A stretch of 42,824 bases of DNA, taken from IMG/VR virus record IMGVR_UViG_2716884767_000001, positions 167,510 through 210,333 of that record; one strand, given 5' to 3'. Origin of the DNA: a virus. Below the pieces are notes generated by a model, which worked only from the letters and a program-made list of their open reading frames with translations, made no database searches and was not told where the DNA came from. The stretch's first letter is position 1. Each line of letters starts with the position of its first letter. Positions 696 to 26,900 of this stretch are shown piece after piece. A program made the position numbers and the translations under genes.

Positions 696-3600
696 ATGCC
701 AAAGTATTTAAGTGGAAGGGTCAAAAGAACTCCACAAGGTTCACTAACAACTGATAGGTATCAATACCTTGGATTAGAACAGGCAGAACCTAATTTAGGT
801 GATCCACCAGAATTAGATGCGATTCCGTCTGGTACGCAATATCAGATTGTTTCATTAATTGATCGACCTGGCGAAAGGTTTTGGGTTCCAATTGGAGGAG
901 GAATACAACCAGGATCTGTAACTATTAGAGATGAAGGATTAGTTGTTCCGAGAACAGATGCAAATCCAAATTTAGGTGTTAGTAGTATCACTGATATAAA
1001 CTTTGTTGGAGCTGCTGTCACTGTTGTTGGATTTTTAAACCCTGACGGATCACCTGGCACTGCTGTTACTGTTACTATTTCCCCACCAGGTGACAATTTT
1101 GAAATTTTATTTAATAGTGCTGATGGTGAATTTACATCTTCTCCAAATTTTATATTTGATAATAGAGTAGGTATAGGTTCGGTTGGTATCGGAACTGTAA
1201 ATCCTACACAGAATTTGCATGTTGTAGGAAATGTAAAATTAGATAAAACAATATATGGAGAGGATAATCAACCAGGTAACACTGGTAATCTTTTAGTAAA
1301 AACTGCAACAGGTGGAGTTAAGTGGACTAGTTCAGGAGCTGTAACATCTGGTGCAGGTGGAACGATAACACAAATTCAGTTTCATGATGATACGGGTTTA
1401 GTTGGTGGTGCAAGTAATTTTGTCTTTGATTCAACGAATAGTAGAATTGGTATAGGTTCAACTCAACCCGATAGATTATTAGATGTTCTTGGTAATTCAC
1501 GATTTACTGGTGTTACAACTTTCTCTGGTGATGTAATATTTGCTGGTGATAATTATAATATTACATTTGATAAATCACTTGATGACTTAGTATTTGGTGA
1601 TAATGCAAAATTAACATTCGGTATTGGGAACACTACTGTCAATTTGTTTTACAAACCAGATACCAGAGATTTTAGACATGAATTTAATGGTGGTGCTAAT
1701 TATGTTTTATTAACTAATACTTTTGATCTCAAAAGTGCAGATGCAAGTAAAGCAGCAATCACAGCATTTGATCCAGGTGGTGTTCCTGAAGTAAGATTAT
1801 TTAATGATGGAAATGAAAAATTAAGAACCACTGGTTATGGAGTTACAGTTTTTGGAAAATTAGAAACAACTGACATTTTTGCATCTGGTAATGTTGGTAT
1901 CGGAACTTCTATAACACCTCATAAGCTAAGTGTTAAGGGTACTATTTCTAAAATATCTGGTGATGGATCTGGAATACAATTAGTAAATATAGCTCAAGAT
2001 GCATCAAATCATGGAACAATTGCAATAAATCAATCTGGTGGAACAGAGAGAATAAAATTACATTCTAGTGGTGTAAGTTATTTTAATGGTGGTGATGTTG
2101 GTATCGGAACTACAAATCCGACAGCATCAAATATTGAATCTGCCCTTGAAAGTAATACAAAAGTTCTTGCCGTTGGTATAATCACTGCAAACCAAATATT
2201 TGGAAAGGTCACTTCCATTCAGGAGACAATAGATCTTGAGACTTTAAATGTCTCTGGAATCACATCAACAAAAAATTTATTTGTTACTGGAATAGCTACT
2301 TTCAACCAAGGTGTATCAATTGGTGGTACATTAACATACGAAGACGTAACAAACGTTGATTCAATTGGTATTATCACTGCAGGAAAAGGTTTTAGAGCCA
2401 CTTCAGGTGGGTTATCTGTTAGTGGTGTTTCTACATTTATAGGTGCTAGTGGTGCAGAACAAGTTAAAATTCAATCTCAAGGTGGTGGAGCATCAATTTT
2501 CATTGCTAATTACCAAGGAGTTACTGATGCAGGAGATAATGGAAGATTAGGTGTTGGTAGAAATGATAATGCATTGATATTCACGAATGCAAGTGCATCT
2601 CAAGTTGGTGTTTTTGCAATTGGTAATACAGACGCAGTTCCACTTGTTTTTTCAACAGCAAACACAGAAAGACTTCGCATCACAGGAATTGGATCAGTTG
2701 GTATCGGAACTAATGATCCAACAGAAAAATTAGAAGTTTATGATGGAAGAATAGTAGTTAGAAATTTAACAGATGATGCAGCTAAAATTGTATTGAGAGA
2801 TGATAGTGGTTCATATGATCATTATCAGATAAGAAATAAAGGTGGTAATTTTATAATTCGTAATTCGGGTGCTGATCCTCAATATAATGCTTTGACTATC
2901 GAGTCAGGTGGTGATGTCGGTATTGGAACTCATGATCCAATACAAAAACTCGATGTAAGAGGTAATGCTATATTCTCAAATTCGGGAAATGATACAAGTG
3001 TTTCGATTGGTGAAACTGTTGGAAATAATAATGCATTTATTGATTTTAGGGGAGATTCAACATATACCGATTATGGTTTAAGAGTATTGAGAAATGATGG
3101 AGGTGCTAATGCTACTTCTGATTTTAGACATAGAGGAACAGGTGCTATAAGAATAGTAGCAGAAGATGCTGGTAGTATTCAATTTTTCACATCTGGAACA
3201 GCATCATCTAATGAAAGACTTCGCATCACATCTGATGGTAAAGTTGGTATTGGAACTGGTAATCCAACATCAAAATTACATGTCTTTGAACGTGTGTCTA
3301 ACAGTGTTGGAGTTACAACTCTTCTTACATTGCATTCAAACAGGAATGACATGACGAGTAGTGTGCTATCTGGTGGATCAATAAGATTTTTCAATACAGA
3401 TGACAATAATTCTGGTCAGGCATTTATTCAAGCAAATGCTCCTTCATCTTATGATGATCCCAATGATGAAGGAAAACGTGAAAAAACAGTCGATTTTAAT
3501 TTTGTACAATCAAACGGAGCTCTTAATACTCTCAATACTAATCTTACAATTAAAGGTGAAACAGGTAATGTTGGTATCGGAAGTGATAATCCAGATGGTA

Positions 3601-6600
3601 AATTACATGTATTTAAAGGTTCTGCTGGTAACGTAAATGCTGACAGTGATGCAAATAATATTGTAATCGAATCGAACACAGATCCTGGTATTTCTTTCTT
3701 ATCTCCAAATAACGAACAAGCAAGAATAAAATTTGCTGATCCAGATGACACTGATGTTGGTGCGATTACTTATAATCATAATAATGATACACTCTCTATG
3801 AGAGCAGGTGGAATCACTGTCATTGGTATTACATCAACGAAGACAACTATTGAGGGAGATTTGGATGTTGATGGAGCTATAACATATAGCACTGTAGCAG
3901 ATGTAAATTCAGTTGGAGTTATTACTGCTCAAAGTGGAATTAATGTGACTGGAGCTGGAGTATCAGTGGTTGGTGTATCTACATTCTTTGATGATGTTGA
4001 TTTTAATTCGGGTATAGGAATTGGTAAATCAATTTTTCACATAGGTGATGAAGGCACTCGGATGCACTTTCCTACCACCAATTCAAATGGTGGAACTGGT
4101 CAGGAGATTGTGTTTGAATCTAATAACACTGAGAGACTTCTTATTAATTCAGATGGAGTAAATCTTAGAGGAGGTGCATTATCTGGAAATAATACTTCTG
4201 TAAATTATTTTGCGATTCAAAGCACAGATGGTAATGCAAATAGATCTCAAATTGATATAGGTTTAATTACAGGTAATGATGGGGGAGGAATTCATTTCTA
4301 CACGACTAGTGATGATGGCACTAACGAAAAATCCAAACGTATGGTCATCAAGGGAAAAACTGGAAAAATAGGTATCGGAACTGATGATCCAACAGCACAA
4401 CTTCAAGTTTATAGAAAGACTCAATTTGGAGGTAATCCATTAATTCAGGCGAGATCCAATAATGGAAGCACCAATGAATTGAAATTTGAAATTGATGGTG
4501 ATGGTGATGCTACTTTTAATGGTGATGTTGGTATCGGAACTAGTGGAAAATTAACAATTAAACCAAATCCAAATCCTACTTTTGGTGTATCCGAAGCAAT
4601 TAGAATAGATCAAAATAATGCCACAGACGATAGAGCGTTGCAAATTTTTGAATTTGAAAATTCATTAGCTAGGCATCATGCACTTACTCATAATCTCAGA
4701 GTTTACAGATACTCTGCATCAGCATATGGATACACACAGGGTAAGTATAGTGGATCTCAAATGCATGAATATGCTGGAGGAACATATAAAATATTTACTA
4801 ATCCACAAGCTTCTGTTGGAAATACACAAGATATTGTTCCAACAGAAAGATTTAGATTAACATCATCTGGTGACGTTGGTATCGGAACTAATAATCCAAC
4901 TGGCAGCAACGCTGTTGTGGATAATAATGCAACATTGGCAGTTGGTATTCTAACTGCTAGACAAATTTCTGGACTAGTTGTTCCTAATGGTGATTTAGTC
5001 GTTGATGGTAATCTTAAGGTAACTGGTATTAGCACTTTTGTTGGTGTTACAACTTTTGGTAATGTTGGAATAGGTGGATCACTTCCTGATGATTTTGTTA
5101 CAAATAAATTTGTTGTTGGTGATGGTGGTGGTAGTCGTGGAATGACCATCTATAGTGATGGAACTTTGGGGCAGATATATTTTGCAGATGGAAATTCAGG
5201 AGACGATAGAAAGAGAGGGGGAATAGTTTATGATCATTCTCAAAATGAGTTAAAATTCTCTGTAAATGCAGTTGAAAAATTCATTATTGACTCAGATGGT
5301 GATGTCGGTATCGGAACTGACGATCCAACATCAAAATTTGATGTTCATATGAATGATAAATCTGGAGTAAATTTTTTAAATATTTCTAATAATTCTGCAA
5401 TAGATCTCAAAGCTAATCAGGTTGAGTCTTGTGGTCGTATTCAGGTATCTGAATCAGTTGGTGGTGGAGTAATGATATTATCCACCAAAAATACTAGTGG
5501 AGATATAACAGAAAGACTTCGCATGCACACAAATGGTGATGTAACAACAACTGGTGCCGATTTCTCCATAGCAAATGCAGGATTTACAGCAAGAAAGGAT
5601 GATTGTGTTAGTATAACAAGGGCAAGTGGAACACCTCTTGAAATAAATCGAACTGGTAATGATGGAGAATTAATTAAGTTCTATCAAGATGGTACGGAAG
5701 AAGCAAATATATCAATTAATGGAGATGATTTAATATTTGGAAATACAACTGAAAAATTCCGTATCAATTCTAGTGGTGCAAAAATCACTGGTAATCTTGA
5801 GGTTACTGGTGAATTAACATACGAAGATGTAACAAATATTGATGCGGTTGGAATTATCACAGCTCAAAATGGAATTAAAGTTCTTGGTGCAGGTGTAACT
5901 GTAACAGGAATTTCAACATTTTATGATAACGTTAATTTCCAAGATAGAGTTCTTATTGGAAGAGAAGTTGGAACTGCAATACACGGAGTAGTGGGTCATA
6001 CTGATAATCAATTACAAGTCGTGGGTACAGGAACTTCATGTGGAATTTCAATTATCAGATATTCAAATGATGACGACGCAGGATCTTTGACTTTTGTTAA
6101 ATCAAGAAGTTCAACGATAGGCACCAACATTGCAGTTCAAAATGGTGACGAACTTGGAGTGATTCGATTCAATGGTGCCGACCAATCACCACCTAATGGT
6201 GACATTGCAAATTCAGGTGCAAGAATTAGAGCTCAAGTAACGGGTCATGTAACTCATGATGATGAGCATGACATACCTACCTCACTGTTTTTTGACACAT
6301 CTCCTGATGGTTTAGCTTCTCCTCAAGAAAGAATGAGTATCCGTCATGATGGACTAGTCGGAATGGGAACTACTACTGCAGTGGGTACACAGTCACAATA
6401 CAGTAGATTGATAGTGAGTGGAAATAATAATTCTACATCAGGATATGGTGTTTTAACCATACAAGCACAATCTTCTGTTCTTCATCAGTCTACAATTGGA
6501 ACTCTTGTTTTTGCTGATCGCAGAGGAGATTTTGCAAATATCACTGCTTTTACTGACGCTAGTACGGGTGGAAGTGATTTTCCTGGACGTTTGTCGTTTG

Positions 6601-7010
6601 CAACAACACCTGATGGTGCCACTATTCCGACAAATAAACTTACCATATTATCAGGAGGTAATATTGGTATTGGAAGTGAAATTCCACAATATAAATTGGA
6701 AGTTGTCGGAACCGTCGCAGCAACTAATTTTGATTCACTTTCAGATCGAAAAGTCAAAACAAATATTCAAATTATTCAAGATCCAATTGAAAAAATTAAA
6801 AAGATTGATGGTGTATCATTTAATTGGAAGTCAGACAATAAACCATCTCTTGGTGTAATTGCTGATAATGTTCAAAGTGTATTACCAGAAATTGTAAGTA
6901 ATAATGATCCAAAATCTGTAAATTATAATGGACTGATTGGATTATTGATTGAGGTTGTTAAAGACCAACAGAAACAAATTGAAGAATTGAGAGGTCTTAT
7001 TGATAAATAA
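696..7010 (+). CDS. Giant modular tail fibre protein (2104 aa) with C-terminal intramolecular chaperone (peptidase S74-like)
   Basis: Many G(N/D/K)VGIGT and ERLRI repeats. C-terminus SDRKVKTNI...GVSFNWK...LGVIAD...LPEIV...VNYNGLIGLLIEVVK plus coiled coil matches the autocleaving chaperone signature. Confidence 0.85.
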   Translation: MPKYLSGRVKRTPQGSLTTDRYQYLGLEQAEPNLGDPPELDAIPSGTQYQIVSLIDRPGERFWVPIGGGIQPGSVTIRDEGLVVPRTDANPNLGVSSITDINFVGAAVTVVGFLNPDGSPGTAVTVTISPPGDNFEILFNSADGEFTSSPNFIFDNRVGIGSVGIGTVNPTQNLHVVGNVKLDKTIYGEDNQPGNTGNLLVKTATGGVKWTSSGAVTSGAGGTITQIQFHDDTGLVGGASNFVFDSTNSRIGIGSTQPDRLLDVLGNSRFTGVTTFSGDVIFAGDNYNITFDKSLDDLVFGDNAKLTFGIGNTTVNLFYKPDTRDFRHEFNGGANYVLLTNTFDLKSADASKAAITAFDPGGVPEVRLFNDGNEKLRTTGYGVTVFGKLETTDIFASGNVGIGTSITPHKLSVKGTISKISGDGSGIQLVNIAQDASNHGTIAINQSGGTERIKLHSSGVSYFNGGDVGIGTTNPTASNIESALESNTKVLAVGIITANQIFGKVTSIQETIDLETLNVSGITSTKNLFVTGIATFNQGVSIGGTLTYEDVTNVDSIGIITAGKGFRATSGGLSVSGVSTFIGASGAEQVKIQSQGGGASIFIANYQGVTDAGDNGRLGVGRNDNALIFTNASASQVGVFAIGNTDAVPLVFSTANTERLRITGIGSVGIGTNDPTEKLEVYDGRIVVRNLTDDAAKIVLRDDSGSYDHYQIRNKGGNFIIRNSGADPQYNALTIESGGDVGIGTHDPIQKLDVRGNAIFSNSGNDTSVSIGETVGNNNAFIDFRGDSTYTDYGLRVLRNDGGANATSDFRHRGTGAIRIVAEDAGSIQFFTSGTASSNERLRITSDGKVGIGTGNPTSKLHVFERVSNSVGVTTLLTLHSNRNDMTSSVLSGGSIRFFNTDDNNSGQAFIQANAPSSYDDPNDEGKREKTVDFNFVQSNGALNTLNTNLTIKGETGNVGIGSDNPDGKLHVFKGSAGNVNADSDANNIVIESNTDPGISFLSPNNEQARIKFADPDDTDVGAITYNHNNDTLSMRAGGITVIGITSTKTTIEGDLDVDGAITYSTVADVNSVGVITAQSGINVTGAGVSVVGVSTFFDDVDFNSGIGIGKSIFHIGDEGTRMHFPTTNSNGGTGQEIVFESNNTERLLINSDGVNLRGGALSGNNTSVNYFAIQSTDGNANRSQIDIGLITGNDGGGIHFYTTSDDGTNEKSKRMVIKGKTGKIGIGTDDPTAQLQVYRKTQFGGNPLIQARSNNGSTNELKFEIDGDGDATFNGDVGIGTSGKLTIKPNPNPTFGVSEAIRIDQNNATDDRALQIFEFENSLARHHALTHNLRVYRYSASAYGYTQGKYSGSQMHEYAGGTYKIFTNPQASVGNTQDIVPTERFRLTSSGDVGIGTNNPTGSNAVVDNNATLAVGILTARQISGLVVPNGDLVVDGNLKVTGISTFVGVTTFGNVGIGGSLPDDFVTNKFVVGDGGGSRGMTIYSDGTLGQIYFADGNSGDDRKRGGIVYDHSQNELKFSVNAVEKFIIDSDGDVGIGTDDPTSKFDVHMNDKSGVNFLNISNNSAIDLKANQVESCGRIQVSESVGGGVMILSTKNTSGDITERLRMHTNGDVTTTGADFSIANAGFTARKDDCVSITRASGTPLEINRTGNDGELIKFYQDGTEEANISINGDDLIFGNTTEKFRINSSGAKITGNLEVTGELTYEDVTNIDAVGIITAQNGIKVLGAGVTVTGISTFYDNVNFQDRVLIGREVGTAIHGVVGHTDNQLQVVGTGTSCGISIIRYSNDDDAGSLTFVKSRSSTIGTNIAVQNGDELGVIRFNGADQSPPNGDIANSGARIRAQVTGHVTHDDEHDIPTSLFFDTSPDGLASPQERMSIRHDGLVGMGTTTAVGTQSQYSRLIVSGNNNSTSGYGVLTIQAQSSVLHQSTIGTLVFADRRGDFANITAFTDASTGGSDFPGRLSFATTPDGATIPTNKLTILSGGNIGIGSEIPQYKLEVVGTVAATNFDSLSDRKVKTNIQIIQDPIEKIKKIDGVSFNWKSDNKPSLGVIADNVQSVLPEIVSNNDPKSVNYNGLIGLLIEVVKDQQKQIEELRGLIDK
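7002..7009 (+). promoter_or_regulatory. T4-type late promoter (GATAAATA)
   Basis: ATAAATA overlapping the upstream stop, about 35 nt before the next ATG; gp55 late consensus is TATAAATA. Confidence 0.55.
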
Positions 7011-7044
7011 AAGAAATTACCCAGTGGGAACACGAAGACGGTAG

Positions 7045-10000
7045 ATGGCAATTAAAATATCAGGCTCAACTATCATAGATGATAGTAGAGTCATAGTAAA
7101 TGCAGATAAAATAGGTATCGGTCAAACCACCCCAAGGTATGATCTAGAAATTTTTAGTACAGGAACTCCCACTGGAATCGCAGTTAGTGCAACCTCTACT
7201 CAGACTACAGATACAAATAAAGCAATATCAATTTTTAATAATAGTAGTACATTAGCTTTTTCAGCAAGTTATAGGGGAAGAGTTGATGCACAAGAATATT
7301 ATGGAACATTTAAAGGAACGATTGATACTGGTGTTTCAATTGGTAAAGCAGATACTATTGACATAACTGATGATACAACAGGTTCAGGAACTCATTATAT
7401 TCATTTTGGTAGTGCGACTGATGGTTATGATGGTGTAGAAGTTGATAGCACAGGTTTAGTTTATAAGGATGGTAAATTCGGTATTGGAACTAATAATCCC
7501 ACTCAAGAACTGACTTTATATGGGAATGATCCTATAATTTCTGTTCAAGAAGCAAGTGTTAGTTCACAAGTTGATATGGGAACAGGAACTGTTACAGGTT
7601 TTATAAACATTCAAAAAGCTGATGGAACAAGAACTGTACAAATAACTGGTAATGGTAAATCTTATTTTACTGGTGGTGGTCTAGGTATTGGAACTGTTGA
7701 TCAAACAAATTATGGTGGTGCCGTAAAACTAGCATTGTATAGCACTGGGCATACTGGATTTACTATTGCTGCAGGAACTAGTAGTGATAGTAATATATTC
7801 TTTGCTGATGGAATAACTGGAGATGCCACTTATCGAGGAAATATTAAATATGCACATAATGGTGATTCAATGCGGTTCCACACCGCAGCAGAAGAACAAC
7901 TTCGCATCACATCAGATGGTTTTGTAGGTATTGGAACTGATAATCCAGCAACAAAATTAGATGTGCAGGATGGTGACATTACGATTCGTAATGGGGCAGA
8001 ACATAATGCGATAAGGACTACTCCAGATGGTAAACTTCAATTCTTACGCAATGCTGCATCTAATAATACAGTATCAGTAACGATTGATGATGCTAATGGT
8101 AATGTTGGTATCGGAGAAACTTCTCCAAGTTCAAAATTTGAAATTGTTTCTGGAAATGCTGCTAGTGTAGTATCGGGAATTAAATTAAAGAATGATTCTA
8201 CAAGTGCCAGTGGGCCAGGATCAAGTATAGATTTTGTTGTTGATGGTGTAAATGATGTCACAACAGCACAAATTATTGGCCAAAGAACTTCAGCCAATTA
8301 TCATCAAGGATCTTTACAGTTTCTGACAAAGGATAGTGGTGGTGCTGGACTTGTAGAAAGACTTCGCATCAACTCTGATGGTGATTTATTAAGAGGTGGA
8401 ACTGGACAGGATATTGGAGCAAGTGATGCTAAGTGGGATAATATATACGCTAACAAAGTTTACGCAGACATAGAGGGATCTATAACTCCATCTGGAAGTC
8501 TAACGATAACAAATGATTTAACTGTAAATGGAAACACAACTTTAGGAGATGCAACTTCAGACACTCTTACTATAAATGCAACTCCTGTAATTATCAATGA
8601 CAATGGACTTTATGTAAAATCGGAAACTAATGCTGCTACCGATGGTGCTCAAATTAGATTTAGTGATATATCCAATGCAACTCAGAAAGGTTTCATTAGA
8701 TACAAACATCCTGATGGTAGTATAGCACCAGGATCGAATGATGGTTTTATAATCGGAGGAACTGAAACTCTTACAGTTGTTAAAGTTGAAGGTCGTGTAC
8801 TTGTAGATGAAAAAATTGGTATTGGAACTGATGATCCTCGCAATGATCTTGTTAAAATAAATCATGCTGGAACTGATACTCCTATAACCGCTTTAACGAT
8901 TTCGGGACAAAAAATTACAACTGGTGGTGGAAGTGGAATCTTTTTGAAAGCTAGTTCTGATGTATTGAATGATGATAGATATGGATCACGAATTCATACA
9001 ATAAGAGAAGGAACAAATAATGGTGCTACTTCATTAGTCATTTCTAATGAAAACTCTGATTCTAGTAGATTGGAAGAAAGACTTCGCATCACATCAGCAG
9101 GCCAAGTAGGTATCGGAACCACCAATCCTAGTCAAATGCTCACAGTTCGGGGAACAATTCTCAAAACCCGTAGTGATTCAGGTCTTGGATTAATATATCT
9201 TCAACAGGATGGATCACAGAATGGACAGATAGTAGTTAATCAGAATGGTGGAGTAACAAGAGTAAAATTAGATTCTGCTGCAGAATCATATTTTAATGGT
9301 GGTAAATTATTAGTTAGTCATACTAGTGTTTTACATTCTGGAAATTTACAAGTCTCTGCTGCTGGTGGTGATGCGATAGATATCAACTCATATTCTACAA
9401 ATGCAAATAATGGTGGTCGATTATCGTTCTACAGAAGTAAGAATGCTTCAATTGGAAGTAATACTGTAGTAGCAAATGGTGATAGTTTAGGAAGAATTGA
9501 CTTTAGAGGATACAATACTAATGGTAATTCTTATGACCAAGGTGCCACAATTGAGGCTAGGGTTGATGGTTCAGTTAATTCATCAACTGACATGCCAACT
9601 GCCATCCTATTCAAAACAAGTAATGATGGTTCAGCGTCACCTGATGAGAGACTTCGCATCGCATCAGATGGTAAAGTTGGTATCGGAACCAATTTAAGTA
9701 CCACCCCATCATCCACTTTAACCGTAGCACCTCATAACTCAACTTCTGGTCGTAATATTTCACTTTATACAAGTGGTTCAGTTGGCAACAAAGCAGGTTT
9801 ATTCTTTAATTCGACTTCAGGAACTGGAAACCTAGCAGAAATTCAGGCAGAATACAAAGGAACTAATGAAGGTGAATTAGTTCTAAGCACTTCGATGCAG
9901 AAAAGAATTACCATCAAGAAAGATGGTGAAGTAGGAATTAATACAGCAACTGTATATGATACCAACACAATGCTTCAGGTTAATGGAAAGTCGGGTGCTG

Positions 10001-13000
10001 GTCCAAATTTAGTCTTACATAGAAATGATACGACAGTTTCAGCAGGTCAAGTTCTTGGTGCATTAAGAATAACTGGAAATGATAGTAACGGAACACAACA
10101 AGAATCCTCTGCAATTGAATTTGTTGCGGACTTAGATCACGGAACAGATGATAAACCAGGACGTATAGTTTTCAGAACAACTAATGATGGTGCATCATCA
10201 GCAACAGAAAAAGTTCGTATCAACTCTGATGGTGATTTATTAAGAGGTGGAACTGGACAGGATATTGGAGCAAGTAATGCTAAGTGGGACAACATATACG
10301 CTAATAAAGTTTATGCAGATATAGAGGGATCTATAACTCCATCTGGAAGTCTAACGATAACAAATGATTTAACTGTAAATGGAAATACAACTTTAGGTAG
10401 TGATTCTAGTGATACTTTGACTGTTAATGCTAATGCCACATTTAATGACGAATTAGAAGTGTTTGGAACTGATGCTTCGGCACTCGTACATTTTAATGGT
10501 CATTCAAGAGGTGGTATTGCTGCTTTTAGCACTCAACAAGTTGCATTTGTCTCAACACATGTGAATGATGATTTATTATTTGGTTATTCTAATAATCCAC
10601 CATCGGGTGCTAATTTTGTTCCAAGAATGAAAATTGATAATGGAACTGGTTACGTATCTATAGGTCATACATCTCCAGCTACTAAGTTAGATGTAAAACA
10701 AAATAATGGAGTTGCTTATGATGGTAATGCACAAACCGTAGCATATGGTGCTGCTCGTTTCTTTAATGAATCTGGACATGTAAATGGTGGAACATATACA
10801 GGATTCCAATTTAATATAACTGGTAATTCTCAGAATAGAATTTGTTCTATTGGAATGATCTCTGAAGCAAGTAATAGTAAAGCATCTTCTCTTGTATTCC
10901 ATACTGATGATAATGGTGATAGAACTGAAAAACTTCGCATCGACTCAAGTGGTAGATTATTTACTGGTGGTTCCACCAATATTCTTGATTCAACTGTTGG
11001 AACACTTCATATTTCTGGTGGAACAAGTGGCGGTAGACTTGCATTTAGAGGAACCACCACAAGTGCGGAGACTGGAATAGCAGAAGTATTTGCTTTCTGG
11101 GATACAAATAAAGTTGCTGGAATGATTGCAAAATCAGGAACAGATACAACTAATAAAGTCGACGGAAGTTTACATTTTTATACAAGACCAGATGCTAATG
11201 GATTAGTAGAAAGACTTAACATCACATCAGATGGACAAGTAAGAATTGCTAATACTGATTTAACTACTAATTCTTCTGCTGATGATTTGATAGTTGGAAC
11301 CACAAGTGGTAACAGAGGACTAACGATTTTCTCAGGAACTGGAAACACTGGAAATATTTTCTTTGCTGACACAGATACATCTGGTGTTGGAAATAGAATG
11401 GGAACCATTACTTATGATCACAGTGGAAACTTTATGAGATTTTCCACGAGTGGAAATCAAGAAAAAGTTCGCATCACATCAACTGGTGATGTTGGTATCG
11501 GAACCACAAATCCAGATGGTAGATTACATGTTTTAGGAAATTCAAGATTTGTAGGAATTACAACTTTTACTGATGATATTTTTGTAGGAACTGATGGTAA
11601 ACTACTTGTCGGAACCACTTCTGGAAACAATGCCAATAAAATTCACGCAAGATTAGCAAATGGAAGTATTGCTAATACCTCAAATCAATCAGTCATACTT
11701 GCAGAAAATAATACTAACACTTGGATAACAATTGGATCAGGTGCAAGTAATTACGGAGGTATTCTATTTGCAGATAGTGGTGCATCTGATGTTGGACAAG
11801 TCAGATATGATCATAGTGGTAATGCTCTTGAATTCTTAACGAATGGTGGCAATGCCACAAATATAAGACTTAAAATCGACTCAAGTGGACATTTACTTCC
11901 TGGTGGAACCAGTCAAGATATAGGTTCTTCAAGTAGTAGATGGAATAATATATTTGCTGCTAATGCAAACTTTAGTGGAACAGTAACCTATGAAAGTGTA
12001 ACAGATATTGATGCGGTTGGAGTTATTACAGCACGTGATCACATAAAATTTGCTAACTCAGGTGATGGAATTATATTTGGAACTGAGGGAAGTAGTGATA
12101 GACCTTCTATACTTGGTACTTATGCTGCAGCAGATGATAATTATATATCGTTTAACACCACTGGTGATGAAAGATTTCGCATTACAAAAGATGGTAAGTT
12201 TTCTTTAGGAACTATTAACGCAACTCCATCAGCAGGTGTGCATATTGATATAGATTCAAATAATATGTTGATGTTGGACAACTCAACAGCATCCACTCAA
12301 AAGATGTTCTTTGCTCAAAGTGGAGGAACACACGCACAAATATATGCAACCTCTGCGAGTGGTGCATTAACAATTGAATCAGACCCAAGTAATAATCACA
12401 CTGGTTCATTTATAGACTTTAGAGTTGATAATGATGAAAAACTTCGCATCGAAGCAGGTGGTGACGTTGGTATCGGGACTCATAATCCTGGTGAAAAACT
12501 TGATGTAAATGGTGCAATAAGATTAAGAGGAAATAATCAAACAACATATGCTGCAGTATTAAAAGCAAATTATGATTCTACTCACACTTTATCTCTTGAA
12601 TCGTATCATAATAGTGGTACTGCATTTGAAGTTATTGGAACTCATGCTGATGGTGGTGGTACAAACGTAAGAGTTGCTATTGCTAAAGATGGTCAAAAAG
12701 TTGGTATCGGAACTGTAAATCCAGTAGCAAGTGCAAGATTAGATGTATGGGGTGATGGTAGTGAATATCCAACTTTAAGATTAGGAACAGAAGCATATGA
12801 TACAGAAGGAGAGGATATAAGATTTGGTAGAATAGATCATCCGCAATCTGATATAAGATATCATTCAATTTATAGTTACCATCACGCAACTGCTGCAAAT
12901 AATTATCTTAAATTTAGTGTACATAAAGGATCCGTTGGTGGTAATAACACATTACAGGCAGATATAATGCATCTTAAAGGTGATGGTAATGTTGGAATCA

Positions 13001-16000
13001 ATGAGGCAGGTAATATAAATGGAAGACTTCATGTTCAGCATGATGCTCTTAATGAAAATATTTTATATGCGACAAGATATAATGATCAAACAAACGATAA
13101 ACCAATACTAGCAATCACCGAAGCACAGATGACTGGAATGGCAGCAAATGCCTCTGGTCTTGTAATTGGTAATCATAATAGAGATATTCATATTGGTCAA
13201 GTTTTTGATAGTAGTGCTACTGTAGACACTTCTGGTGTAAAAGGAATCCGCATCACAAATCAGGGTAACGTTGGTATTGGAACTAATAATCCAACTGGAG
13301 CACAAGCACTTACGGGTAATAACACAACACTAGCTGTTGGAAATTTAATAGCTGGTAATATTACTGGTACACTCGGATCACCAGGTAGTGATACTCAAGT
13401 TTTATTTAATGATGGTGGTGATGCTGGTGCAGATGCAGGGTTAACATTTAATAAGACCTCAGATAAATTAACCGTTGGTGGTGATGTTAAACTTGGTGGG
13501 ACTTTATTTTTTAATGAAAGTGCAGGTGATGTATCAAAGATAGTAGGAGGTGCGTCAAATTTAGATCTGTATGCTGATTCACTTATTCAATTATATGAAA
13601 GTGATGCTAATAGATTAGGAGTAACATTTGACATTAATCAGAGTGCAACTGATAGAGATGTCAGAATGTACTTCTTGGGTGATAGTGATACTTATTTACA
13701 TAGTCCTGCTAGTGATACTCTTGGATTCACTATCGGTGGAACAGAGAGACTTAGACTTCAAACTGATGCATTAAATATTAAAACAGATGTTCGATATGGA
13801 GCTAATGATAGCACTCTTCTTACTTCACACATCTATGTTCGTGGAACTGGACTCAATAACGATGCTTTCAGACAATGCACCTTAAATGGTTCAGATCAAA
13901 TATCTGGTGGTAATCGTAATAATCGAGGACTTCACTTATTAATTTTTGATGCCACTGATTCTTTAACACTGGACTCTGGAACGACTTATGATACACACGG
14001 AAATGGTACTAATTCAGACAATTTAGCAACTGCCATTGGTGGTATGGATAGAACTAAAATCGGAGTTTTAGTTAGTTATGATGCATTTACTGATAATCTT
14101 ACTGATAATCTTCGTACTGCAGCACAAAAAGTTGGTCTGTTTAAATTGGCAGGAATGGCTACTGGAACTGCAACAAGACACCCATATGCTGCGATATTCA
14201 GAGGAACAAGTGATGATACTGATGCAGAGGTCAATGATGCGATTGAAGTAATACAATCAGATGATGCAGATGCTCCTACTGCGACTATTTCGACTTTTAT
14301 AACAGTTAAAGGAAATGGTGAAAATGCCACAATCACAGGAGCATACTCAGTTAGTGCTCTTGTTGCTCCTGCAGGAGGTTACGAATCACCACTTCTACAA
14401 GGTAAATCATCAACTAACTCAGCATCAACACTAACAATAGGAGCAGGAGTTCATCTTCTACCATCTGGATCGGCTGCAAACGATGGTGATGCAACTGGTG
14501 TAGATCTTGGAGGTTCAAGTAATTATCTAAGACAAATATATGTTCGAAAAATAAATGCTGATTCTGTTGTTGGACCTGTAACAGGAGCAGCGAGTCAATT
14601 AAAAATAACAAATCAGGCAAGTGATGCCACTTGCTTCCCTGTATTTGTTCAAGCTGCCACAGGTGATACTCTAACTCCACATGCTAATACGAGTTTAACT
14701 TTCGACGCAAGTACAGGTCAACTTGGAGCAACAACATTAAAATCTACAGCATCACAAGGAACCGCACCATTTACGGTTACTTCTACAACAACAGTAACTA
14801 ATTTAAGCGCAGATTTATTAGATGGTAGAGATACTTCTAATACAGGTGGTAGTGATGTAGTAATGGTTACTAATAATAGTGGTAATACATCACTTGGGTC
14901 AGGAATATTCACTGCAGGTGTATTAAAAGCAACTGGAAATGCTAATCCAGTAGCAGAGTTTGATAGAGGTAGTGCGAATAATACAAATCTAAACTTAAAA
15001 TATAACGGAACTCATTATGGACAAATAAGTGTTGCCGATAAAGAATTTCAACTAAGTGCTGTTGGTGCGGCCACTACATTTAAAGTCTTTACCAATGGTT
15101 CTTCTAGATTTGAGATTGATGTTAATGGTAATGCGGGTCTTGGAGCAAGACCAAAAACATCAGGAACATTATACACCACGGTTGATCATTTCTTAGTTAT
15201 TGGTGATAATGATACTGGTATTGCACAAGATGGTGATGGACAACTTGAAATATGGGCAAATGATCAAGAAATTGCTAATTTTAATACAAGTAATGTTACG
15301 TTAAGAAAAAACACTACTATTAATGGTAATCTGACTGTCGATGGAACATTAACATATGAAGATGTAACTAATGTAAGCACAACTGGTATTATAACCGCAT
15401 CTGCATTCATAGCCACAGGTGCAACAGTCGATTCTGGCACTGAGAATGATCCAACTAATGTTGCGATGATGCTTGAAGTAAATGATTACATTTATTCAAA
15501 TGATAGTGTAAACAGTAAAAGAAAAATAATTGGAAAGAGTAGAACAACAAATCCAACTTTTGAAACAATTGAGATTGGTCAAACTGGCACCGCATTAATT
15601 GATCAGATATCAATAAGACCAGGTAATGCTGGTGATTTTAGAGTTGTAACTGGTGGTGCTACAGGACATCCTGGAAGTCATACAGCAGTTCGAGTGAGTG
15701 CTGGTGGCACACTTTCAGTAAGAGACATTGATCCAAAAGATGTTCACTTTGAGGTTAAAAGTGATAAGGGAATGTTAATCCGAACAGACACTAATACTGG
15801 TTCTGTGTCGGGTTTGAGTGGTAGTTTACAAGGAGCAAAATTACTCTTCAGTGATCAGGGTAGTGCATCTCAAGTTGGTCATATTGTTTATAAGCATTCT
15901 GATGGTGCAGTTTCACCAAACACTAATGAGGGATTTATAATTGGAGGAAGTGAAACTCTTTCGGTTGTTAAAGTTGATGGTCGTGTACTTGTAGATGAAA

Positions 16001-17010
16001 ATGTTGGTATCGGAACTATAACTCCTCAAACAAACCTCCATATTCTTGCTCCTACTGGTTTACCAATAATACGTTTACAACATAATAGTGCTGGTAATGA
16101 TGTTTTTGACATTTCGAGTGGTATTCCTGGTGTAAGTAATGGTGGATTTGCAATTCGTGACGTTGATGCAAGTTCTAACAGATTAGTTATAGCATCAAAT
16201 GGTGATGTAAAAGTAACATCACGAGGTTCATCCGCCTCAGGTGCACCATTCTACGTTGCTGTAGATGGTAAATCATCTATCACATATGCTGGTGGTAATG
16301 ATGATACTGCTTGTTTAAGAATCGTAGATAATCAAGGTGATAATAATAGTTACTATCACGGACTTGAACTAAGAACAAAAAATAATGGTGATGTTAGACT
16401 TTATGCTCAAGATAAAGGTAGTAATTTAGCTGACTTTGTGCTTGCTACTGATTCTGGAGATGGTAATACTAATGGAATAAAAGAAAGACTTCGTGTCGCA
16501 ACAACGGGAGCAATTTCATTCAACGGTGAAACTAATTATGGTTCATCAGGACAGATACTTAAAAGTAATGGAGATGCTCCTCCAACTTGGATAGATGCAT
16601 CTACCGCAAGCGGTGTTGCCGTTAGTATCAAACAATATAAAGTTGGAACTACTGAAAGAACATGTGGTTCTCCTATAAGTGTTGCGTCTGGTAATGTCAT
16701 TGGAATTGCGTCAACAAGTAATGCTTATGGAGCTCGATATATCAGTACCGAGGCATCTGGTGGAAGTTATTGTGATGGAGATATATGGTATGATACATCA
16801 GATTCAGACCAAGACGAGAACAATGCTACAGGTACAACTACATCGAACATATTTGAAGCAAATAAATTCTTCCAAAACCCAACGTCACTGACACAAACAA
16901 CGACGTTCCCGATTAGTGGATCAAAAAATGGTGGAGTTTTTGGTCCTTATACAATTGCAAATGGTGTCACTCTTACAATCAGTAGTGGTTCAACGTTCAC
17001 AATCATATAG
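7045..17010 (+). CDS. Giant modular tail fibre protein (3321 aa)
   Basis: Same VGIGT/ERLRI linkers. T4 long-fibre-like IGDNDTG..DGDGQL motif near 15200. Putative ILEI/PANDER-like lectin domain at about 13830-14300. C-terminal GPYTIANGVTLTISSGS motif. Confidence 0.85.
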   Translation: MAIKISGSTIIDDSRVIVNADKIGIGQTTPRYDLEIFSTGTPTGIAVSATSTQTTDTNKAISIFNNSSTLAFSASYRGRVDAQEYYGTFKGTIDTGVSIGKADTIDITDDTTGSGTHYIHFGSATDGYDGVEVDSTGLVYKDGKFGIGTNNPTQELTLYGNDPIISVQEASVSSQVDMGTGTVTGFINIQKADGTRTVQITGNGKSYFTGGGLGIGTVDQTNYGGAVKLALYSTGHTGFTIAAGTSSDSNIFFADGITGDATYRGNIKYAHNGDSMRFHTAAEEQLRITSDGFVGIGTDNPATKLDVQDGDITIRNGAEHNAIRTTPDGKLQFLRNAASNNTVSVTIDDANGNVGIGETSPSSKFEIVSGNAASVVSGIKLKNDSTSASGPGSSIDFVVDGVNDVTTAQIIGQRTSANYHQGSLQFLTKDSGGAGLVERLRINSDGDLLRGGTGQDIGASDAKWDNIYANKVYADIEGSITPSGSLTITNDLTVNGNTTLGDATSDTLTINATPVIINDNGLYVKSETNAATDGAQIRFSDISNATQKGFIRYKHPDGSIAPGSNDGFIIGGTETLTVVKVEGRVLVDEKIGIGTDDPRNDLVKINHAGTDTPITALTISGQKITTGGGSGIFLKASSDVLNDDRYGSRIHTIREGTNNGATSLVISNENSDSSRLEERLRITSAGQVGIGTTNPSQMLTVRGTILKTRSDSGLGLIYLQQDGSQNGQIVVNQNGGVTRVKLDSAAESYFNGGKLLVSHTSVLHSGNLQVSAAGGDAIDINSYSTNANNGGRLSFYRSKNASIGSNTVVANGDSLGRIDFRGYNTNGNSYDQGATIEARVDGSVNSSTDMPTAILFKTSNDGSASPDERLRIASDGKVGIGTNLSTTPSSTLTVAPHNSTSGRNISLYTSGSVGNKAGLFFNSTSGTGNLAEIQAEYKGTNEGELVLSTSMQKRITIKKDGEVGINTATVYDTNTMLQVNGKSGAGPNLVLHRNDTTVSAGQVLGALRITGNDSNGTQQESSAIEFVADLDHGTDDKPGRIVFRTTNDGASSATEKVRINSDGDLLRGGTGQDIGASNAKWDNIYANKVYADIEGSITPSGSLTITNDLTVNGNTTLGSDSSDTLTVNANATFNDELEVFGTDASALVHFNGHSRGGIAAFSTQQVAFVSTHVNDDLLFGYSNNPPSGANFVPRMKIDNGTGYVSIGHTSPATKLDVKQNNGVAYDGNAQTVAYGAARFFNESGHVNGGTYTGFQFNITGNSQNRICSIGMISEASNSKASSLVFHTDDNGDRTEKLRIDSSGRLFTGGSTNILDSTVGTLHISGGTSGGRLAFRGTTTSAETGIAEVFAFWDTNKVAGMIAKSGTDTTNKVDGSLHFYTRPDANGLVERLNITSDGQVRIANTDLTTNSSADDLIVGTTSGNRGLTIFSGTGNTGNIFFADTDTSGVGNRMGTITYDHSGNFMRFSTSGNQEKVRITSTGDVGIGTTNPDGRLHVLGNSRFVGITTFTDDIFVGTDGKLLVGTTSGNNANKIHARLANGSIANTSNQSVILAENNTNTWITIGSGASNYGGILFADSGASDVGQVRYDHSGNALEFLTNGGNATNIRLKIDSSGHLLPGGTSQDIGSSSSRWNNIFAANANFSGTVTYESVTDIDAVGVITARDHIKFANSGDGIIFGTEGSSDRPSILGTYAAADDNYISFNTTGDERFRITKDGKFSLGTINATPSAGVHIDIDSNNMLMLDNSTASTQKMFFAQSGGTHAQIYATSASGALTIESDPSNNHTGSFIDFRVDNDEKLRIEAGGDVGIGTHNPGEKLDVNGAIRLRGNNQTTYAAVLKANYDSTHTLSLESYHNSGTAFEVIGTHADGGGTNVRVAIAKDGQKVGIGTVNPVASARLDVWGDGSEYPTLRLGTEAYDTEGEDIRFGRIDHPQSDIRYHSIYSYHHATAANNYLKFSVHKGSVGGNNTLQADIMHLKGDGNVGINEAGNINGRLHVQHDALNENILYATRYNDQTNDKPILAITEAQMTGMAANASGLVIGNHNRDIHIGQVFDSSATVDTSGVKGIRITNQGNVGIGTNNPTGAQALTGNNTTLAVGNLIAGNITGTLGSPGSDTQVLFNDGGDAGADAGLTFNKTSDKLTVGGDVKLGGTLFFNESAGDVSKIVGGASNLDLYADSLIQLYESDANRLGVTFDINQSATDRDVRMYFLGDSDTYLHSPASDTLGFTIGGTERLRLQTDALNIKTDVRYGANDSTLLTSHIYVRGTGLNNDAFRQCTLNGSDQISGGNRNNRGLHLLIFDATDSLTLDSGTTYDTHGNGTNSDNLATAIGGMDRTKIGVLVSYDAFTDNLTDNLRTAAQKVGLFKLAGMATGTATRHPYAAIFRGTSDDTDAEVNDAIEVIQSDDADAPTATISTFITVKGNGENATITGAYSVSALVAPAGGYESPLLQGKSSTNSASTLTIGAGVHLLPSGSAANDGDATGVDLGGSSNYLRQIYVRKINADSVVGPVTGAASQLKITNQASDATCFPVFVQAATGDTLTPHANTSLTFDASTGQLGATTLKSTASQGTAPFTVTSTTTVTNLSADLLDGRDTSNTGGSDVVMVTNNSGNTSLGSGIFTAGVLKATGNANPVAEFDRGSANNTNLNLKYNGTHYGQISVADKEFQLSAVGAATTFKVFTNGSSRFEIDVNGNAGLGARPKTSGTLYTTVDHFLVIGDNDTGIAQDGDGQLEIWANDQEIANFNTSNVTLRKNTTINGNLTVDGTLTYEDVTNVSTTGIITASAFIATGATVDSGTENDPTNVAMMLEVNDYIYSNDSVNSKRKIIGKSRTTNPTFETIEIGQTGTALIDQISIRPGNAGDFRVVTGGATGHPGSHTAVRVSAGGTLSVRDIDPKDVHFEVKSDKGMLIRTDTNTGSVSGLSGSLQGAKLLFSDQGSASQVGHIVYKHSDGAVSPNTNEGFIIGGSETLSVVKVDGRVLVDENVGIGTITPQTNLHILAPTGLPIIRLQHNSAGNDVFDISSGIPGVSNGGFAIRDVDASSNRLVIASNGDVKVTSRGSSASGAPFYVAVDGKSSITYAGGNDDTACLRIVDNQGDNNSYYHGLELRTKNNGDVRLYAQDKGSNLADFVLATDSGDGNTNGIKERLRVATTGAISFNGETNYGSSGQILKSNGDAPPTWIDASTASGVAVSIKQYKVGTTERTCGSPISVASGNVIGIASTSNAYGARYISTEASGGSYCDGDIWYDTSDSDQDENNATGTTTSNIFEANKFFQNPTSLTQTTTFPISGSKNGGVFGPYTIANGVTLTISSGSTFTII
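8368..8546 (+). repeat. Intragenic direct repeat, copy 1 (about 180 bp)
   Basis: Nearly identical to 10219..10397 (INSDGDLLRGGTGQDIGAS.AKWDNIYANKVYADIEGSITPSGSLTITNDLTVNGNTTLG). Confidence 0.95.
10219..10397 (+). repeat. Intragenic direct repeat, copy 2
   Basis: Nearly identical to 8368..8546, offset 1851 bp (in frame); differences mostly synonymous. Confidence 0.95.
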
Positions 17011-23900: not shown

Positions 23901-26900
23901 ATGCCACTGAATAAGTTAGATAATTTCTTAAAAAACGTAGAAGGTCGTATTCTTTATGTAAGTCCAAGTGATTTAGATGCAAGTGATGCGATGTCAAATC
24001 AGGGTAATTCCCAAGCAACACCATTTAAAACCATTCAAAGGGCACTGATTGAGTCAGCAAGATTTTCTTATGTTCAAGGTAATAATAACGATATAACAGA
24101 AAAAACAACAATATTATTGATGCCTGGTGAGCATATTATTGATAATAGACCAGGATACAAGATAAAAAAATCAGGAAACAATGCACAAATTTTAAATCAA
24201 GCAGGTGGAGTTGTTTCAACAGACTCATTATCTTTAAATTTAGACTCTAAGTTTGACCTTACAGTTGAAGATAACATTTTACACAAATATAATAGTGTTC
24301 ATGGTGGAGTTATTGTTCCAAGAGGAACTTCAATTGTTGGACTTGATTTAAGAAAAACAAAAATCATTCCAAAATATGTTCCAAACCCAACAGATTCATC
24401 AGTTCCTAATTCTGCAATTTTTAGAATCACAGGTGCCTGTTATTTTTGGCAATTTTCTGTATTTGATGGAAAGGAGAATGAGTTAGTATATACAGATAAT
24501 ACAATATTCACCAGTAAATTAAGCACTCCTACTTTTTCACACCACAAATTAACAGTATTTGAATATGCAGATGGAGTAAATTTAAATGAACAAACAGAAT
24601 TAACAGATTTAAATATGTATTACTATAAGCTTTCATTAGCTTATGGTACTGCGACAACAAATCGAAATATTATTGACAAATTTCCTGCAAGCACTGATGG
24701 TTTTGCTGCAAGAAGACCTGAATTTGAAATTGTTGGTGCATTTGCGGCGGATCCAATTTCAATTACAAGTCTCATATCAGGTGATGGATCAAACGTATCA
24801 CCTGTTGTAACTGTAACAACACAACAGGATCACAATCTCGATGTAGGAACCCCAATTAAAATATCTGGTGTTATTCCTCTTGAATATAATATTTCAGCAA
24901 AGGTAACCAGTGTCAGTGTGACTAATAAAAAAGTATTCACGTATGCTCTCGATAATGTTCCTGATGAGTTACCAGCAACTGCTTCTAATGTAAGTGGTGC
25001 AACTGTCACAGTTGAAACTGACACAGTTGGAGGAGCATCACCTTATATCTTTAATATATCGTTAAGATCTGTTTATGGTATGAATGGTATGCATGCCGAT
25101 GGATCAAAGGCAACTGGTTTCCGTTCAATGGTTGTTGCACAATTTACTGGAGTTTCATTACAGAAAGATGATCGTGCTTTTGTAAAATATAGTAAGACAG
25201 GTAGAGATTATGATGGATTGATCATAACCCCAGTTTTTGATGAAAGACTTTCATCAGAATCATCTGCAACCGACACCGAGAAAGTATTTCACTTAGATTC
25301 TGATGCAATCTATAGAAATGGATGGGAGACAAGACATGTAAAAATATCAAATGACTCTGTATTACAAATTGTATCTGTATTTGCAATTGGATATGGTATT
25401 CATTTTGAAGCAAAATCGGGTGCCGATGCTTCTATCACTAACTCAAACTCTAACTTTGGTCAATTAGCACTTGTATCTGACGGATTTAAGAAAAATGCAT
25501 TCCAAAAAGATGATCGAGCTTTCATTACTCATATATTACCACCAAGGGCAATAACTTCATCTGAAGAAAATATTGATTGGGTTACCATAGATATTGATAA
25601 AACAAAAACTGTTAATAATGATAAAAGATTATATTTGTTTGGATTTACCTCTGAAGATATATTACCACCGTCAGTGACTCAGGGTTTCCGAGTTGGTGCC
25701 AAAGTTAATGATGTTTTATTTGTAGATATTGCTGGTGTGGAAAAATCAGCAAATATTTTGATGGAGGATGGCACTGCCACACCTTCATTGTCAAGTGTCA
25801 AAACAATAGAGGTTGGAGAACCATCTGGAAGTCTGTTTACAACATCAGATGGATCAGCACACAAACTGTCAACAGGTGAAAAAGTAATTGTTATCAGTGA
25901 CGATGGTGACTTACCAGAGAATTTAGATGAAAAAACAGTATATTTTGCTATTGTTTTATCTCCTAGCACATTTAGATTAGCATCTTCAAAAACTAACGCA
26001 GATAATTCTGAATTTATCAGTGTATATAAAGGAACAAATTTAAAAGTATTAAGTCGTGTTAGTGATAAAGATTCTGGTGACTTAGGACATCCTGTTCAAT
26101 TTGATGGAACACAATGGTTTATTAATGTTCAAACAGGAAACAATATATTTACAAGTATTGCATCACTTACTGGTAGAACCGAACCATCATTCGTAAAGAG
26201 AATCTCAGACACGAGATCTCTTGATGAAAAAATTTATAAGGTTAGACTTGCAATACCAAAAGAAATTTCAAACTCAAAGAATCCAGAAAACGGTTTTGTA
26301 ATTCAAGAATCAAGTTCAACTGGTGTTCGAGGATCTTCTGATTTTATTAAAAATGATGCTCTTACTAGATCAGATTTTGAATTTAAAAGAAATCCTAGAT
26401 TTATTAGTAGTTGTACGTTCAATAATGCAACAGATATCATCACAATTCAAGCAGAGAGACCTCATAATTTACAAATAGGTGATTTAGTTACCATCAAAAA
26501 TATTAAAGATGGTGGTTCGGGTGGTAGTGCTTTGGGTGAAGATAATAAAGGATATAATGGAGAATTTACTGTCAAAAATATACCAAATAGTTTGACATTT
26601 GAGTATGAAACCACAAGAGATAATTTAGGTGCTTCTGCAACAAATGATTTTAGTATAGAGGATACATCTCTTCCTAGATTTGAGAGGACTGATCTAAAAT
26701 CAAATATTTATTTGTTTAGAAATACATTAGTTTCAGAATATATTGATGCCACACAAGATGGTGTTTATCAAGTATTTGCTCTTAATTCCAGTAATGATAT
26801 TCAAGAGGAATATACTGATTTAAATTATAGTCAAAATGTAGTTGATTTATATCCTCAATTAGATCGAGATAATGTAAATGAAAATCCCCAAGCATCTAAA

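Follow-up and report, generated by a model that had tools for sequence, protein, structure and literature searches.

The window considered here (42,824 nt, positions 167,510 to 210,333 of the IMG/VR record IMGVR_UViG_2716884767_000001) makes up the last 42.8 kb of a virus record that has 210,333 bp and a GC content of 34.4%. It has the gene content of a T4-like cyanophage, namely, tail-fibre and tail-collar proteins, 2OG-Fe(II) oxygenases, a carbamoyltransferase, a helicase, and a methyltransferase. Two adjacent giant tail-fibre genes, g1 and g2, lie at its start, and a linker peptide, E-R/K-L-R-I-x-S-x-G-x-V-G-I-G-T, encoded by 27–45 nt, recurs through both of them. It recurs also, about 12 times and spelled as in g1 and g2, through a third giant fibre gene outside the window, a 3211-aa open reading frame at genome positions 131630–141265 (about 26–36 kb upstream of the window start). 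The DNA of this linker, and its relation to the exchange of fibre modules, is the subject of this report. The two genes of the window match the PHROG tail-fibre profiles (phrog_9942 and phrog_18345) at 1.2e-65 and 1.1e-64, and are as follows:

696–7010, + strand: g1, tail-fibre gene, 2104 aa, phrog_9942 and phrog_18345 (tail fiber)
6741–6896 (aa 2016–2067), + strand: C-terminal S74 chaperone domain in g1, PF13884, 3.4e-12
7045–17010, + strand: g2, tail-fibre gene, 3321 aa, adjacent to g1, phrog_9942, 1.1e-64

The linker is found in full, as a first half, or as a lone second half. The copies are listed below, together with the ends of the homology blocks obtained when g1, g2, and the third gene were compared by blastn with IMG/VR loci; the two copies of an internal repeat of g2 and a related pentapeptide in another fibre gene are added.

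2667–2711, +: full linker ERLRITGIGSVGIGT; AGA CTT CGC ATC ... GGT ATC GGA
3213–3257, +: full linker ERLRITSDGKVGIGT; CGC ATC; homology blocks begin at 3212
4845–4889, +: deviant linker ERFRLTSSGDVGIGT; first half AGA TTA, second half standard GGT ATC GGA; a block begins at 4844
5511–5537, +: half linker ERLRMHTNG; CGC ATG; a block begins at 5509
5751–5777, +: half linker EKFRINSSG; CGT ATC
7894–7938, +: full linker EQLRITSDGFVGIGT; CGC ATC; blocks finish at 7944–7953 and one begins at 7924
8356–8382, +: half linker ERLRINSDG; CGC ATC; left edge of the 225-nt internal repeat
9076–9120, +: full linker ERLRITSAGQVGIGT; CGC ATC; block ends at 9067, 9096, and 9109
9646–9690, +: full linker ERLRIASDGKVGIGT; CGC ATC; within the overlap of the upstream block 9299–9693 and the downstream block 9645–9938
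9900–9944, +: degenerate linker KRITIKKDGEVGINT; block ends at 9912 and 9938; missed by the regular expression
10207–10233, +: half linker EKVRINSDG; CGT ATC; left edge of internal repeat copy 2
10927–10953, +: half linker EKLRIDSSG; CGC ATC; a block begins at 10934
11209–11235, +: half linker ERLNITSDG; AAC ATC; block ends at 11214 and 11231
11461–11505, +: full linker EKVRITSTGDVGIGT; CGC ATC; a block finishes at 11514
12169–12213, +: linker ERFRITKDGKFSLGT; CGC ATT; block ends at 12161 and 12182–12197
12436–12480, +: full linker EKLRIEAGGDVGIGT; CGC ATC; block ends at 12466 and 12487
13240–13284, +: linker KGIRITNQGNVGIGT; CGC ATC; blocks finish at 13253–13297
16483–16509, +: half linker ERLRVATTG; CGT GTC; blocks begin at 16459–16482
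1182–1196, +: lone VGIGT half-site; GGT ATC GGA
1893–1907, +: lone VGIGT half-site; edge of a module common to the third gene
2097–2111, +: lone VGIGT half-site; blocks begin at 2090
2916–2930, +: lone VGIGT half-site (ATT); a block finishes at 2939
3570–3584, +: lone VGIGS half-site; blocks begin at 3561–3564
4368–4382, +: lone IGIGT half-site; a 3.6-kb block of 96% identity begins at 4361
4527–4541, +: lone VGIGT half-site; block ends at 4517 and 4542
5304–5318, +: lone VGIGT half-site
7111–7125, +: lone IGIGQ half-site
7477–7491, +: lone FGIGT half-site (ATT); edge of a module common to the third gene
7681–7695, +: lone LGIGT half-site (ATT); blocks begin at 7684
8104–8118, +: lone VGIGE half-site; a block finishes at 8115
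8815–8829, +: lone IGIGT half-site (ATT); blocks and internal repeat D13 finish at 8829
12700–12714, +: lone VGIGT half-site; block ends at 12687 and 12724
16003–16017, +: lone VGIGT half-site; blocks finish at 16018–16027
8355–8579, +: internal repeat of g2, copy 1; 89% identity across its 225 nt and 95% in the first 192; starts at the first codon of a linker
10206–10430, +: internal repeat of g2, copy 2
29154–29168, +: ERLRV of the 1873-aa fibre gene, in frame, single copy; GAAAGGTTACGTGTT (AGG TTA CGT GTT); outside the system

The word CTTCGCAT occurs nine times on the + strand (2673, 3219, 5517, 7900, 8362, 9082, 9652, 10933, and 12442) and not at all on the reverse strand, for a mean of 0.5 (at most 2) in shuffled sequences. 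TTCGCAT is present additionally at 11468 and 12176, and all these positions are exactly those given by the original prediction, made from the letters of the window. A second word, GGTATCGG, which that prediction had put at about 17 copies, is found 17 times on the + strand, every one of them within g1 or g2, and once on the − strand (shuffle mean, 0.29).

The linker is conserved in its codons as well. Twelve of the 15 CGC codons in g1 and g2 together encode the second Arg of the E-R/K-L/V/F-R-I/M motif, the first Arg of which is always AGA. All 27 copies of the motif in the three giant genes were taken, and each column was compared with the codon use of the same genes outside the linkers, where CGC (1.7% of Arg codons) and ATC (10.7% of Ile codons) are indeed the minority codons that they had seemed to be. 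Leu was CTT in 20 of 20 copies (background 0.24; P 4e-13), the invariant Arg was CGC in 18 and CGT in 7 of the 27 (CGC background 0.017; P 5e-26), Ile was ATC in 22 of 23 (background 0.107; P 1e-20), and Thr was ACA in 12 of 12 (background 0.407; P 2e-5). Ser was TCN in all 19 copies and never AGT or AGC (TCN background 0.65; no P calculated), the conserved Asp was GAT in 13 of 13, and G-I-G was GGT ATC GGA in most copies. For CTT, CGC, and ATC, codon use at the linker therefore lies far above the gene-wide bias.

This synonymous conservation is narrowly confined. Full linker units are 79% identical across their 45 nt, whereas their flanks (30 nt upstream and 60–90 nt downstream) are 34% identical, and random in-frame windows 31%. 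In terms of DNA identity, the linker is therefore an island amid modules that have diverged to saturation. Runs of exact identity between linker copies do not exceed 25 nt, and their median length is 13 nt.

One explanation for such an island would be a signal in the nucleic acid itself, such as a hairpin or a site bound by a protein (the target of a site-specific recombinase, for instance, or a pause or processing site). An imperfect hairpin had been proposed for some copies, and the words that can form it are present at 3218 and 9651; it is not a general feature, however, as eight folded copies are no more stable than their shuffles (z from −1.95 to +1.97) and have no RNA structure in common. 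Moreover, GC at third codon positions (GC3) is raised at three codon positions of the linker only, and all the linker copies are in one orientation, which argues against an inversion system. Inverted sites of the Gin/Cin or shufflon type were not encountered, the linkers all being direct and CTTCGCAT having no reverse match, in an analysis that had no search aimed at a recombinase gene. A signal of this kind thus appears extremely improbable. A GC-biased gene conversion tract was also considered and rejected: GC3 has no broad peak, and T and A occupy the sites in question in the other spelling of the linker (see below).

The modules between the linkers are shuffled. The blastn comparison with IMG/VR contigs yielded blocks of 150–3600 nt with 80–97% identity, the order of which, and the gene in which they lie, vary from one contig to another, in agreement with the exchange of modules between genes and phages that had been predicted. 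In contig L125, for example, the window segments 9299–9667, 9676–9939, 9912–10221, 10207–10430, and 12466–12724 correspond to positions 15192, 5353, 13438, 10262, and 10745, respectively. The second of these segments, which belongs to g2, lies inside the g1 homologue of L125 and is also present in the third giant gene of the phage studied here; similarly, the g2 block 11231–11514 is found inside the g1 homologue of contig L123. Within the genome of this phage, the third gene has five blocks in common with g1 and g2 (81–87% identity; for example, 1886–2109, 4358–4541, and 7469–7702), and the edges of these blocks are at, or within about 30 nt of, linkers. A four-way alignment of 4271–4450 illustrates such an edge, the sequences being near-identical downstream of G-K-I-G-I-G-T and unrelated upstream of it.

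The positions of the breakpoints relative to the linkers were analysed with blocks of at least 150 nt and at least 75% identity. Once ends at locus edges had been removed, 112 distinct endpoint clusters remained in g1 and g2, and these were compared with 40 linker units defined by a regular expression, which, with a tolerance of 6 nt, cover 12% of the sequence. The breakpoints are not distributed at random: 57 of the 112 lie within linker units, for a mean of 13.3 (sd 4.4) on circular shifting of the units (P <= 4e-4), and a simpler binomial test with slightly different intervals gave 5e-23. The share at linkers is 58% for blocks of at least 85% identity, 67% for at least 88%, and 68% for at least 90%. 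The orientation of the block ends is also informative, left ends falling at the start of a unit 14 times versus 2 and right ends at the end of a unit 15 times versus 2. This observation indicates that blocks from both sides overlap in the linker, as would be expected if the linker were the shared homology that holds the joint. In the cultured isolates S-TIM5 and S-TIM54, 5 of about 12 block ends are at linkers, and the pattern is therefore not purely an artefact of assembly.

It could nevertheless be argued that the shuffled orders are mis-assemblies at a repeated linker, and that the uniform spelling is the relic of a recent tandem duplication. The loci used for comparison are, indeed, mostly IMG/VR assemblies, in which repeats can be mis-joined. 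The exact repeats, however, do not exceed 25 nt, which is below the usual final k-mers of assembly, and the cultured isolates have the same pattern; this one genome also contains paralogous modules that are 13% diverged and bounded by linkers. Moreover, the 34% identity of the flanks, a random level, implies that any duplications are old, even though the linker is still at 79%. The combination of artefact and ancestry is therefore very improbable.

A comparison of isolates, gathered on the basis of protein similarity rather than DNA, revealed that the same peptide is written in two ways. Spelling 1 is CTT CGC ATC ACA TCA and spelling 2 is CTT CGT ATA ACT TCT. The former is used by this phage and largely by P-TIM68, the latter by S-TIM5 (11 of 12 copies), S-TIM54 (10 of 10), S-SM2, and S-PRM1. 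In the spelling-2 isolates, ATA accounts for 19–27% of Ile codons outside the linker and for 27 of 28 inside it. The podovirus S-CBP1 (L119, 48% GC) keeps CGC ATC ACA, with CTC or CTG for Leu and TCG for Ser. Spelling cuts across taxonomy: S-SM2, one of the Kyanoviridae, agrees with S-TIM5 (Aurunvirus), and P-TIM68 and this phage use the other form.

Among IMG/VR stretches of viral contigs, the spelling-1 20-mer is present in at least 118 and the spelling-2 20-mer in 57. A system in two giant genes, as first described, is therefore correct insofar as both genes have the linker, but too narrow, given that the third giant gene and those 118 or more stretches use the same spelling. When seed copies are excluded from the counts, spelling-1-seeded loci (those among the matches listed) have 201 copies with CGC ATC versus 6 with CGT ATA, and spelling-2-seeded loci have 132 with CGT ATA versus 7 with CGC ATC. 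Among the matches listed, 89 loci have at least three classified copies, of which 52 are pure for one spelling, 28 pure for the other, and 9 mixed. The mean GC contents of the two groups are alike (0.365 and 0.385). With spelling-1 loci, the genes of the window share 38 blocks of at least 85% identity; no such block is shared with the spelling-2 loci, which amount to 0.56 Mb.

The existence, at the same residues, of two sets of silent bases, each internally uniform, argues against selection at the level of the amino acid or tRNA and in favour of two spellings that would reflect a DNA identity maintained within a recombining gene pool. A further step would be to regard the spelling as a compatibility tag, such that phages with CGC ATC ACA TCA and those with CGT ATA ACT TCT form separate pools for module exchange; this is a possibility, albeit a doubtful one. 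If it were true, a few silent bases would decide which module libraries are accessible to a phage, and this would be an unusual structuring of gene flow by silent sites.

Two observations on the distribution of the linker may be added here. The locus L134 (IMGVR_UViG_3300030330_002406) has mostly CGT ATA and a single CGC ATC linker, upstream of which the module resembles spelling-2 loci (79%) and downstream of which it resembles a spelling-1 locus (90%), so this region may be an import across pools. An ERMRI/ERLRI..GxVGIGT linker is also present in podoviruses of other hosts, namely, Pelagibacter phage HTVC304P (L120) and S-CBP1, and the invariant Arg is CGY in these too, even in the pelagiphage with its 33% GC.

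Translational selection might be invoked to explain the fixed codons, either for the accuracy of decoding at invariant residues or for a rare-codon pause that would help the modules to fold. Such an explanation is in line with the rarity of CGC and ATC in this genome (CGC makes up 2.8% of Arg codons genome-wide) and with the finding of CGY at the invariant Arg in every phage examined, the pelagiphage and the 48%-GC podovirus included. It fits less well with the CGN-richest genes of the genome, which favour CGT over CGC, and with the absence of tRNA genes from the whole 210-kb record, as searched with ARAGORN. It is also at odds with Asp remaining GAT in 13 of 13 copies, which indicates no general move towards C-ending codons at conserved residues, and with Leu CTT, Thr ACA, and Ser TCA being fixed likewise. 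In phages that have the other spelling and a similar GC content, these residues are instead fixed as ATA and CGT, and no single tRNA logic covers both. Translational selection is, on balance, decidedly improbable. An explanation by optimal codons or phage tRNAs was rejected on the grounds of the CGT of CGN-rich genes, the constant GAT, and the lack of tRNA genes.

At the level of the protein, a 500-aa piece of g1 matches the solved MAT fibres of Bdellovibrio through the linker motif (8OND, E 3e-11; also 8OML and 8OJN). MAT fibres are described by Caulton et al. (2024, PMC10769870) as intertwined trimeric beta-helices with, at their edges, "capping loops" of consensus V-G-G/N-small-x-x-P-x-x-x-L that are common to S74-type phage fibres. 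The half of the linker that reads VGIGTxxPxxKL fits this consensus, and the linker is therefore a structural boundary that recurs and at which modules can be joined end to end; it is proposed to join successive structural modules of trimeric tail fibres. The MAT fibres of Bdellovibrio bacteriovorus resemble g1 and g2 in their repeated motif, ERMRI..G.VG.GT..P...L, and in their mosaic domain make-up, and g1 ends, like S74-type fibres, in an S74 chaperone domain. No S74 domain was found in g2, which would fit the non-S74 subgroup of MAT/S74-type fibres. MAT fibres differ in being bacterial surface fibres rather than parts of a virion; what is available of the paper concerns mosaicism of the protein and makes no claim about joints in the DNA or recombination at them.

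This structural likeness raises the question of a filter acting on the protein only: recombination, illegitimate events included, might occur anywhere, with folding possible only for chimeras joined at domain boundaries, and the synonymous conservation would have an unrelated cause. The alignment of the linker with the repeated motif of the solved fibres and the fit of its second half to the capping-loop consensus are in line with this explanation, and between one-third and one-half of the breakpoints are not at linkers as defined by the regular expression. It leaves unexplained, though, the identity of the codons, the two contig-specific spellings, and the lack of modules shared across them. 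Furthermore, the blocks on both sides include the whole linker, as expected for exchange within shared homology. A filter of this type is consequently unlikely to be the whole explanation.

The reading that we favour is that the linker is both a joint between modules and a short stretch of DNA homology for in-frame homologous recombination between fibre modules, and we consider this likely. The in-frame crossover site of the original prediction is thus supported by the identity of the codons and the concentration of breakpoints, from which we infer the mechanism. Homologous recombination at linker DNA would join one module to another, in frame, by a crossover inside the linker, and could take place among copies in one gene, among the three paralogous giant genes, or between co-infecting phages. 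The machinery would probably be the phage's own UvsX/UvsY or the RecA of the host; UvsY and a RecA-family recombinase are encoded elsewhere in the same genome. Each exchange would leave a hybrid linker, such that frequent exchange would keep linker DNA uniform in the gene pool and the uniform linker would, in turn, keep exchange possible; identity would then be a cause as well as a consequence of exchange. The outcome would be a large shared library of modules that could be added, lost, or re-ordered with the reading frame and the fold left intact, and host range might change as a result. The spelling may be selected for exchange, or may be a by-product, homogenised by it.

Several points weigh against recombination at the linker as the favoured reading. 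Efficient homologous recombination in T4 needs about 50 bp, and the identity runs of the linker are shorter, so the events of exchange would be rare. About half of the breakpoints, and about one-third of the high-identity ones, lie outside the linkers defined by the regular expression, although some of these ends fall on degenerate linkers that it did not detect, such as KRITIKKDGEVGINT at 9900. A BLAST block that abuts a conserved linker extends through it, and the clustering is somewhat sharpened thereby. The comparison sequences are mostly metagenome assemblies, as noted above, with the attendant risk of mis-joins at repeats. Finally, if chimeras were selected only for being foldable, the junctions that survive would likewise lie at domain boundaries, and such selection may have contributed.

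A precedent for recombination at conserved motifs exists in the fibre adhesins of the T-even phages, in the His boxes of gp37 and the glycine-rich motifs of gp38 (Tetart et al. 1996, 1998; Trojet et al. 2011, PMC3157838). There, as here, short conserved motifs alternate with variable segments of a host-recognition fibre gene, natural chimeras have junctions in or near the motifs, and the segments form a shared library of interchangeable parts. The T-even motifs, however, separate small loops at the tip of an adhesin, whereas the modules here are large parts of the shaft (50–270 aa) in genes of 2100–3300 aa; three paralogous genes share the module pool here, and there are two synonymous spellings. 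The evidence is genetic in the T-even case and, in the present one, comes from sequence comparison. The linker has no homology to the His boxes or to the gp38 glycine-rich motifs, having no pair of histidines and no run of glycines, its glycines being confined to G-I-G. It is by analogy of working, then, and not by descent that the linker resembles the T-even motifs, and fibre-module exchange in these phages may be a new case of conserved-motif recombination of the T-even type. In cyanomyoviruses, the same phage group, mosaic fibre genes with repeat motifs of 15–51 aa and the idea of fragment swapping were reported by Sullivan et al. (2005, PMC1079782), whose available text does not mention a codon-locked linker, a mapping of breakpoints, or spelling groups.

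In the most abundant phages of the ocean, host range depends on fibre genes whose variability defeats alignment. A defined, codon-locked joint is a practical means of dividing such genes into modules, of cataloguing the pool of these modules in metagenomes, and of following their exchange among cyanophages; it would also take conserved-motif recombination beyond a few adhesins of coliphages, to the giant fibre genes found widely in marine viromes.

As regards relatives of the region, a megablast search against GenBank phages gave no match (near relatives may not be in that set), and tblastn gave distant relatives only, with less than 60% identity. A further fibre gene of the window, of 1873 aa (23901–29522), matches phrog_529, has an S74 C-terminus, and is devoid of CGC codons. 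Its ERLRV is coded differently from the linker, as the original prediction had stated, and this gene does not seem to belong to the module pool.

Another conserved motif, LTYEDVTNxDxxGxITA, with a G-V-S-T-F strand after it, is present in g1 and g2 at 2324–2397, 3872–3945, 5807–5880, 11976–12049, and 15342–15415. It was considered as a second class of junction and rejected, the association being weak (3 of the 55 remaining breakpoints for 2.2% coverage). A few high-identity breakpoints do lie in the LTYEDVTNxDxxGxITA/GVSTF region, at 2439, 3985–3995, 11977, and 15407. Finally, the C-terminal third of g2, which is free of linkers, has at 13924–14157 (aa 2294–2371) an ILEI-like domain that could be a binding domain (PF15711; its E value, 2.4e-6, is just above the cut-off).

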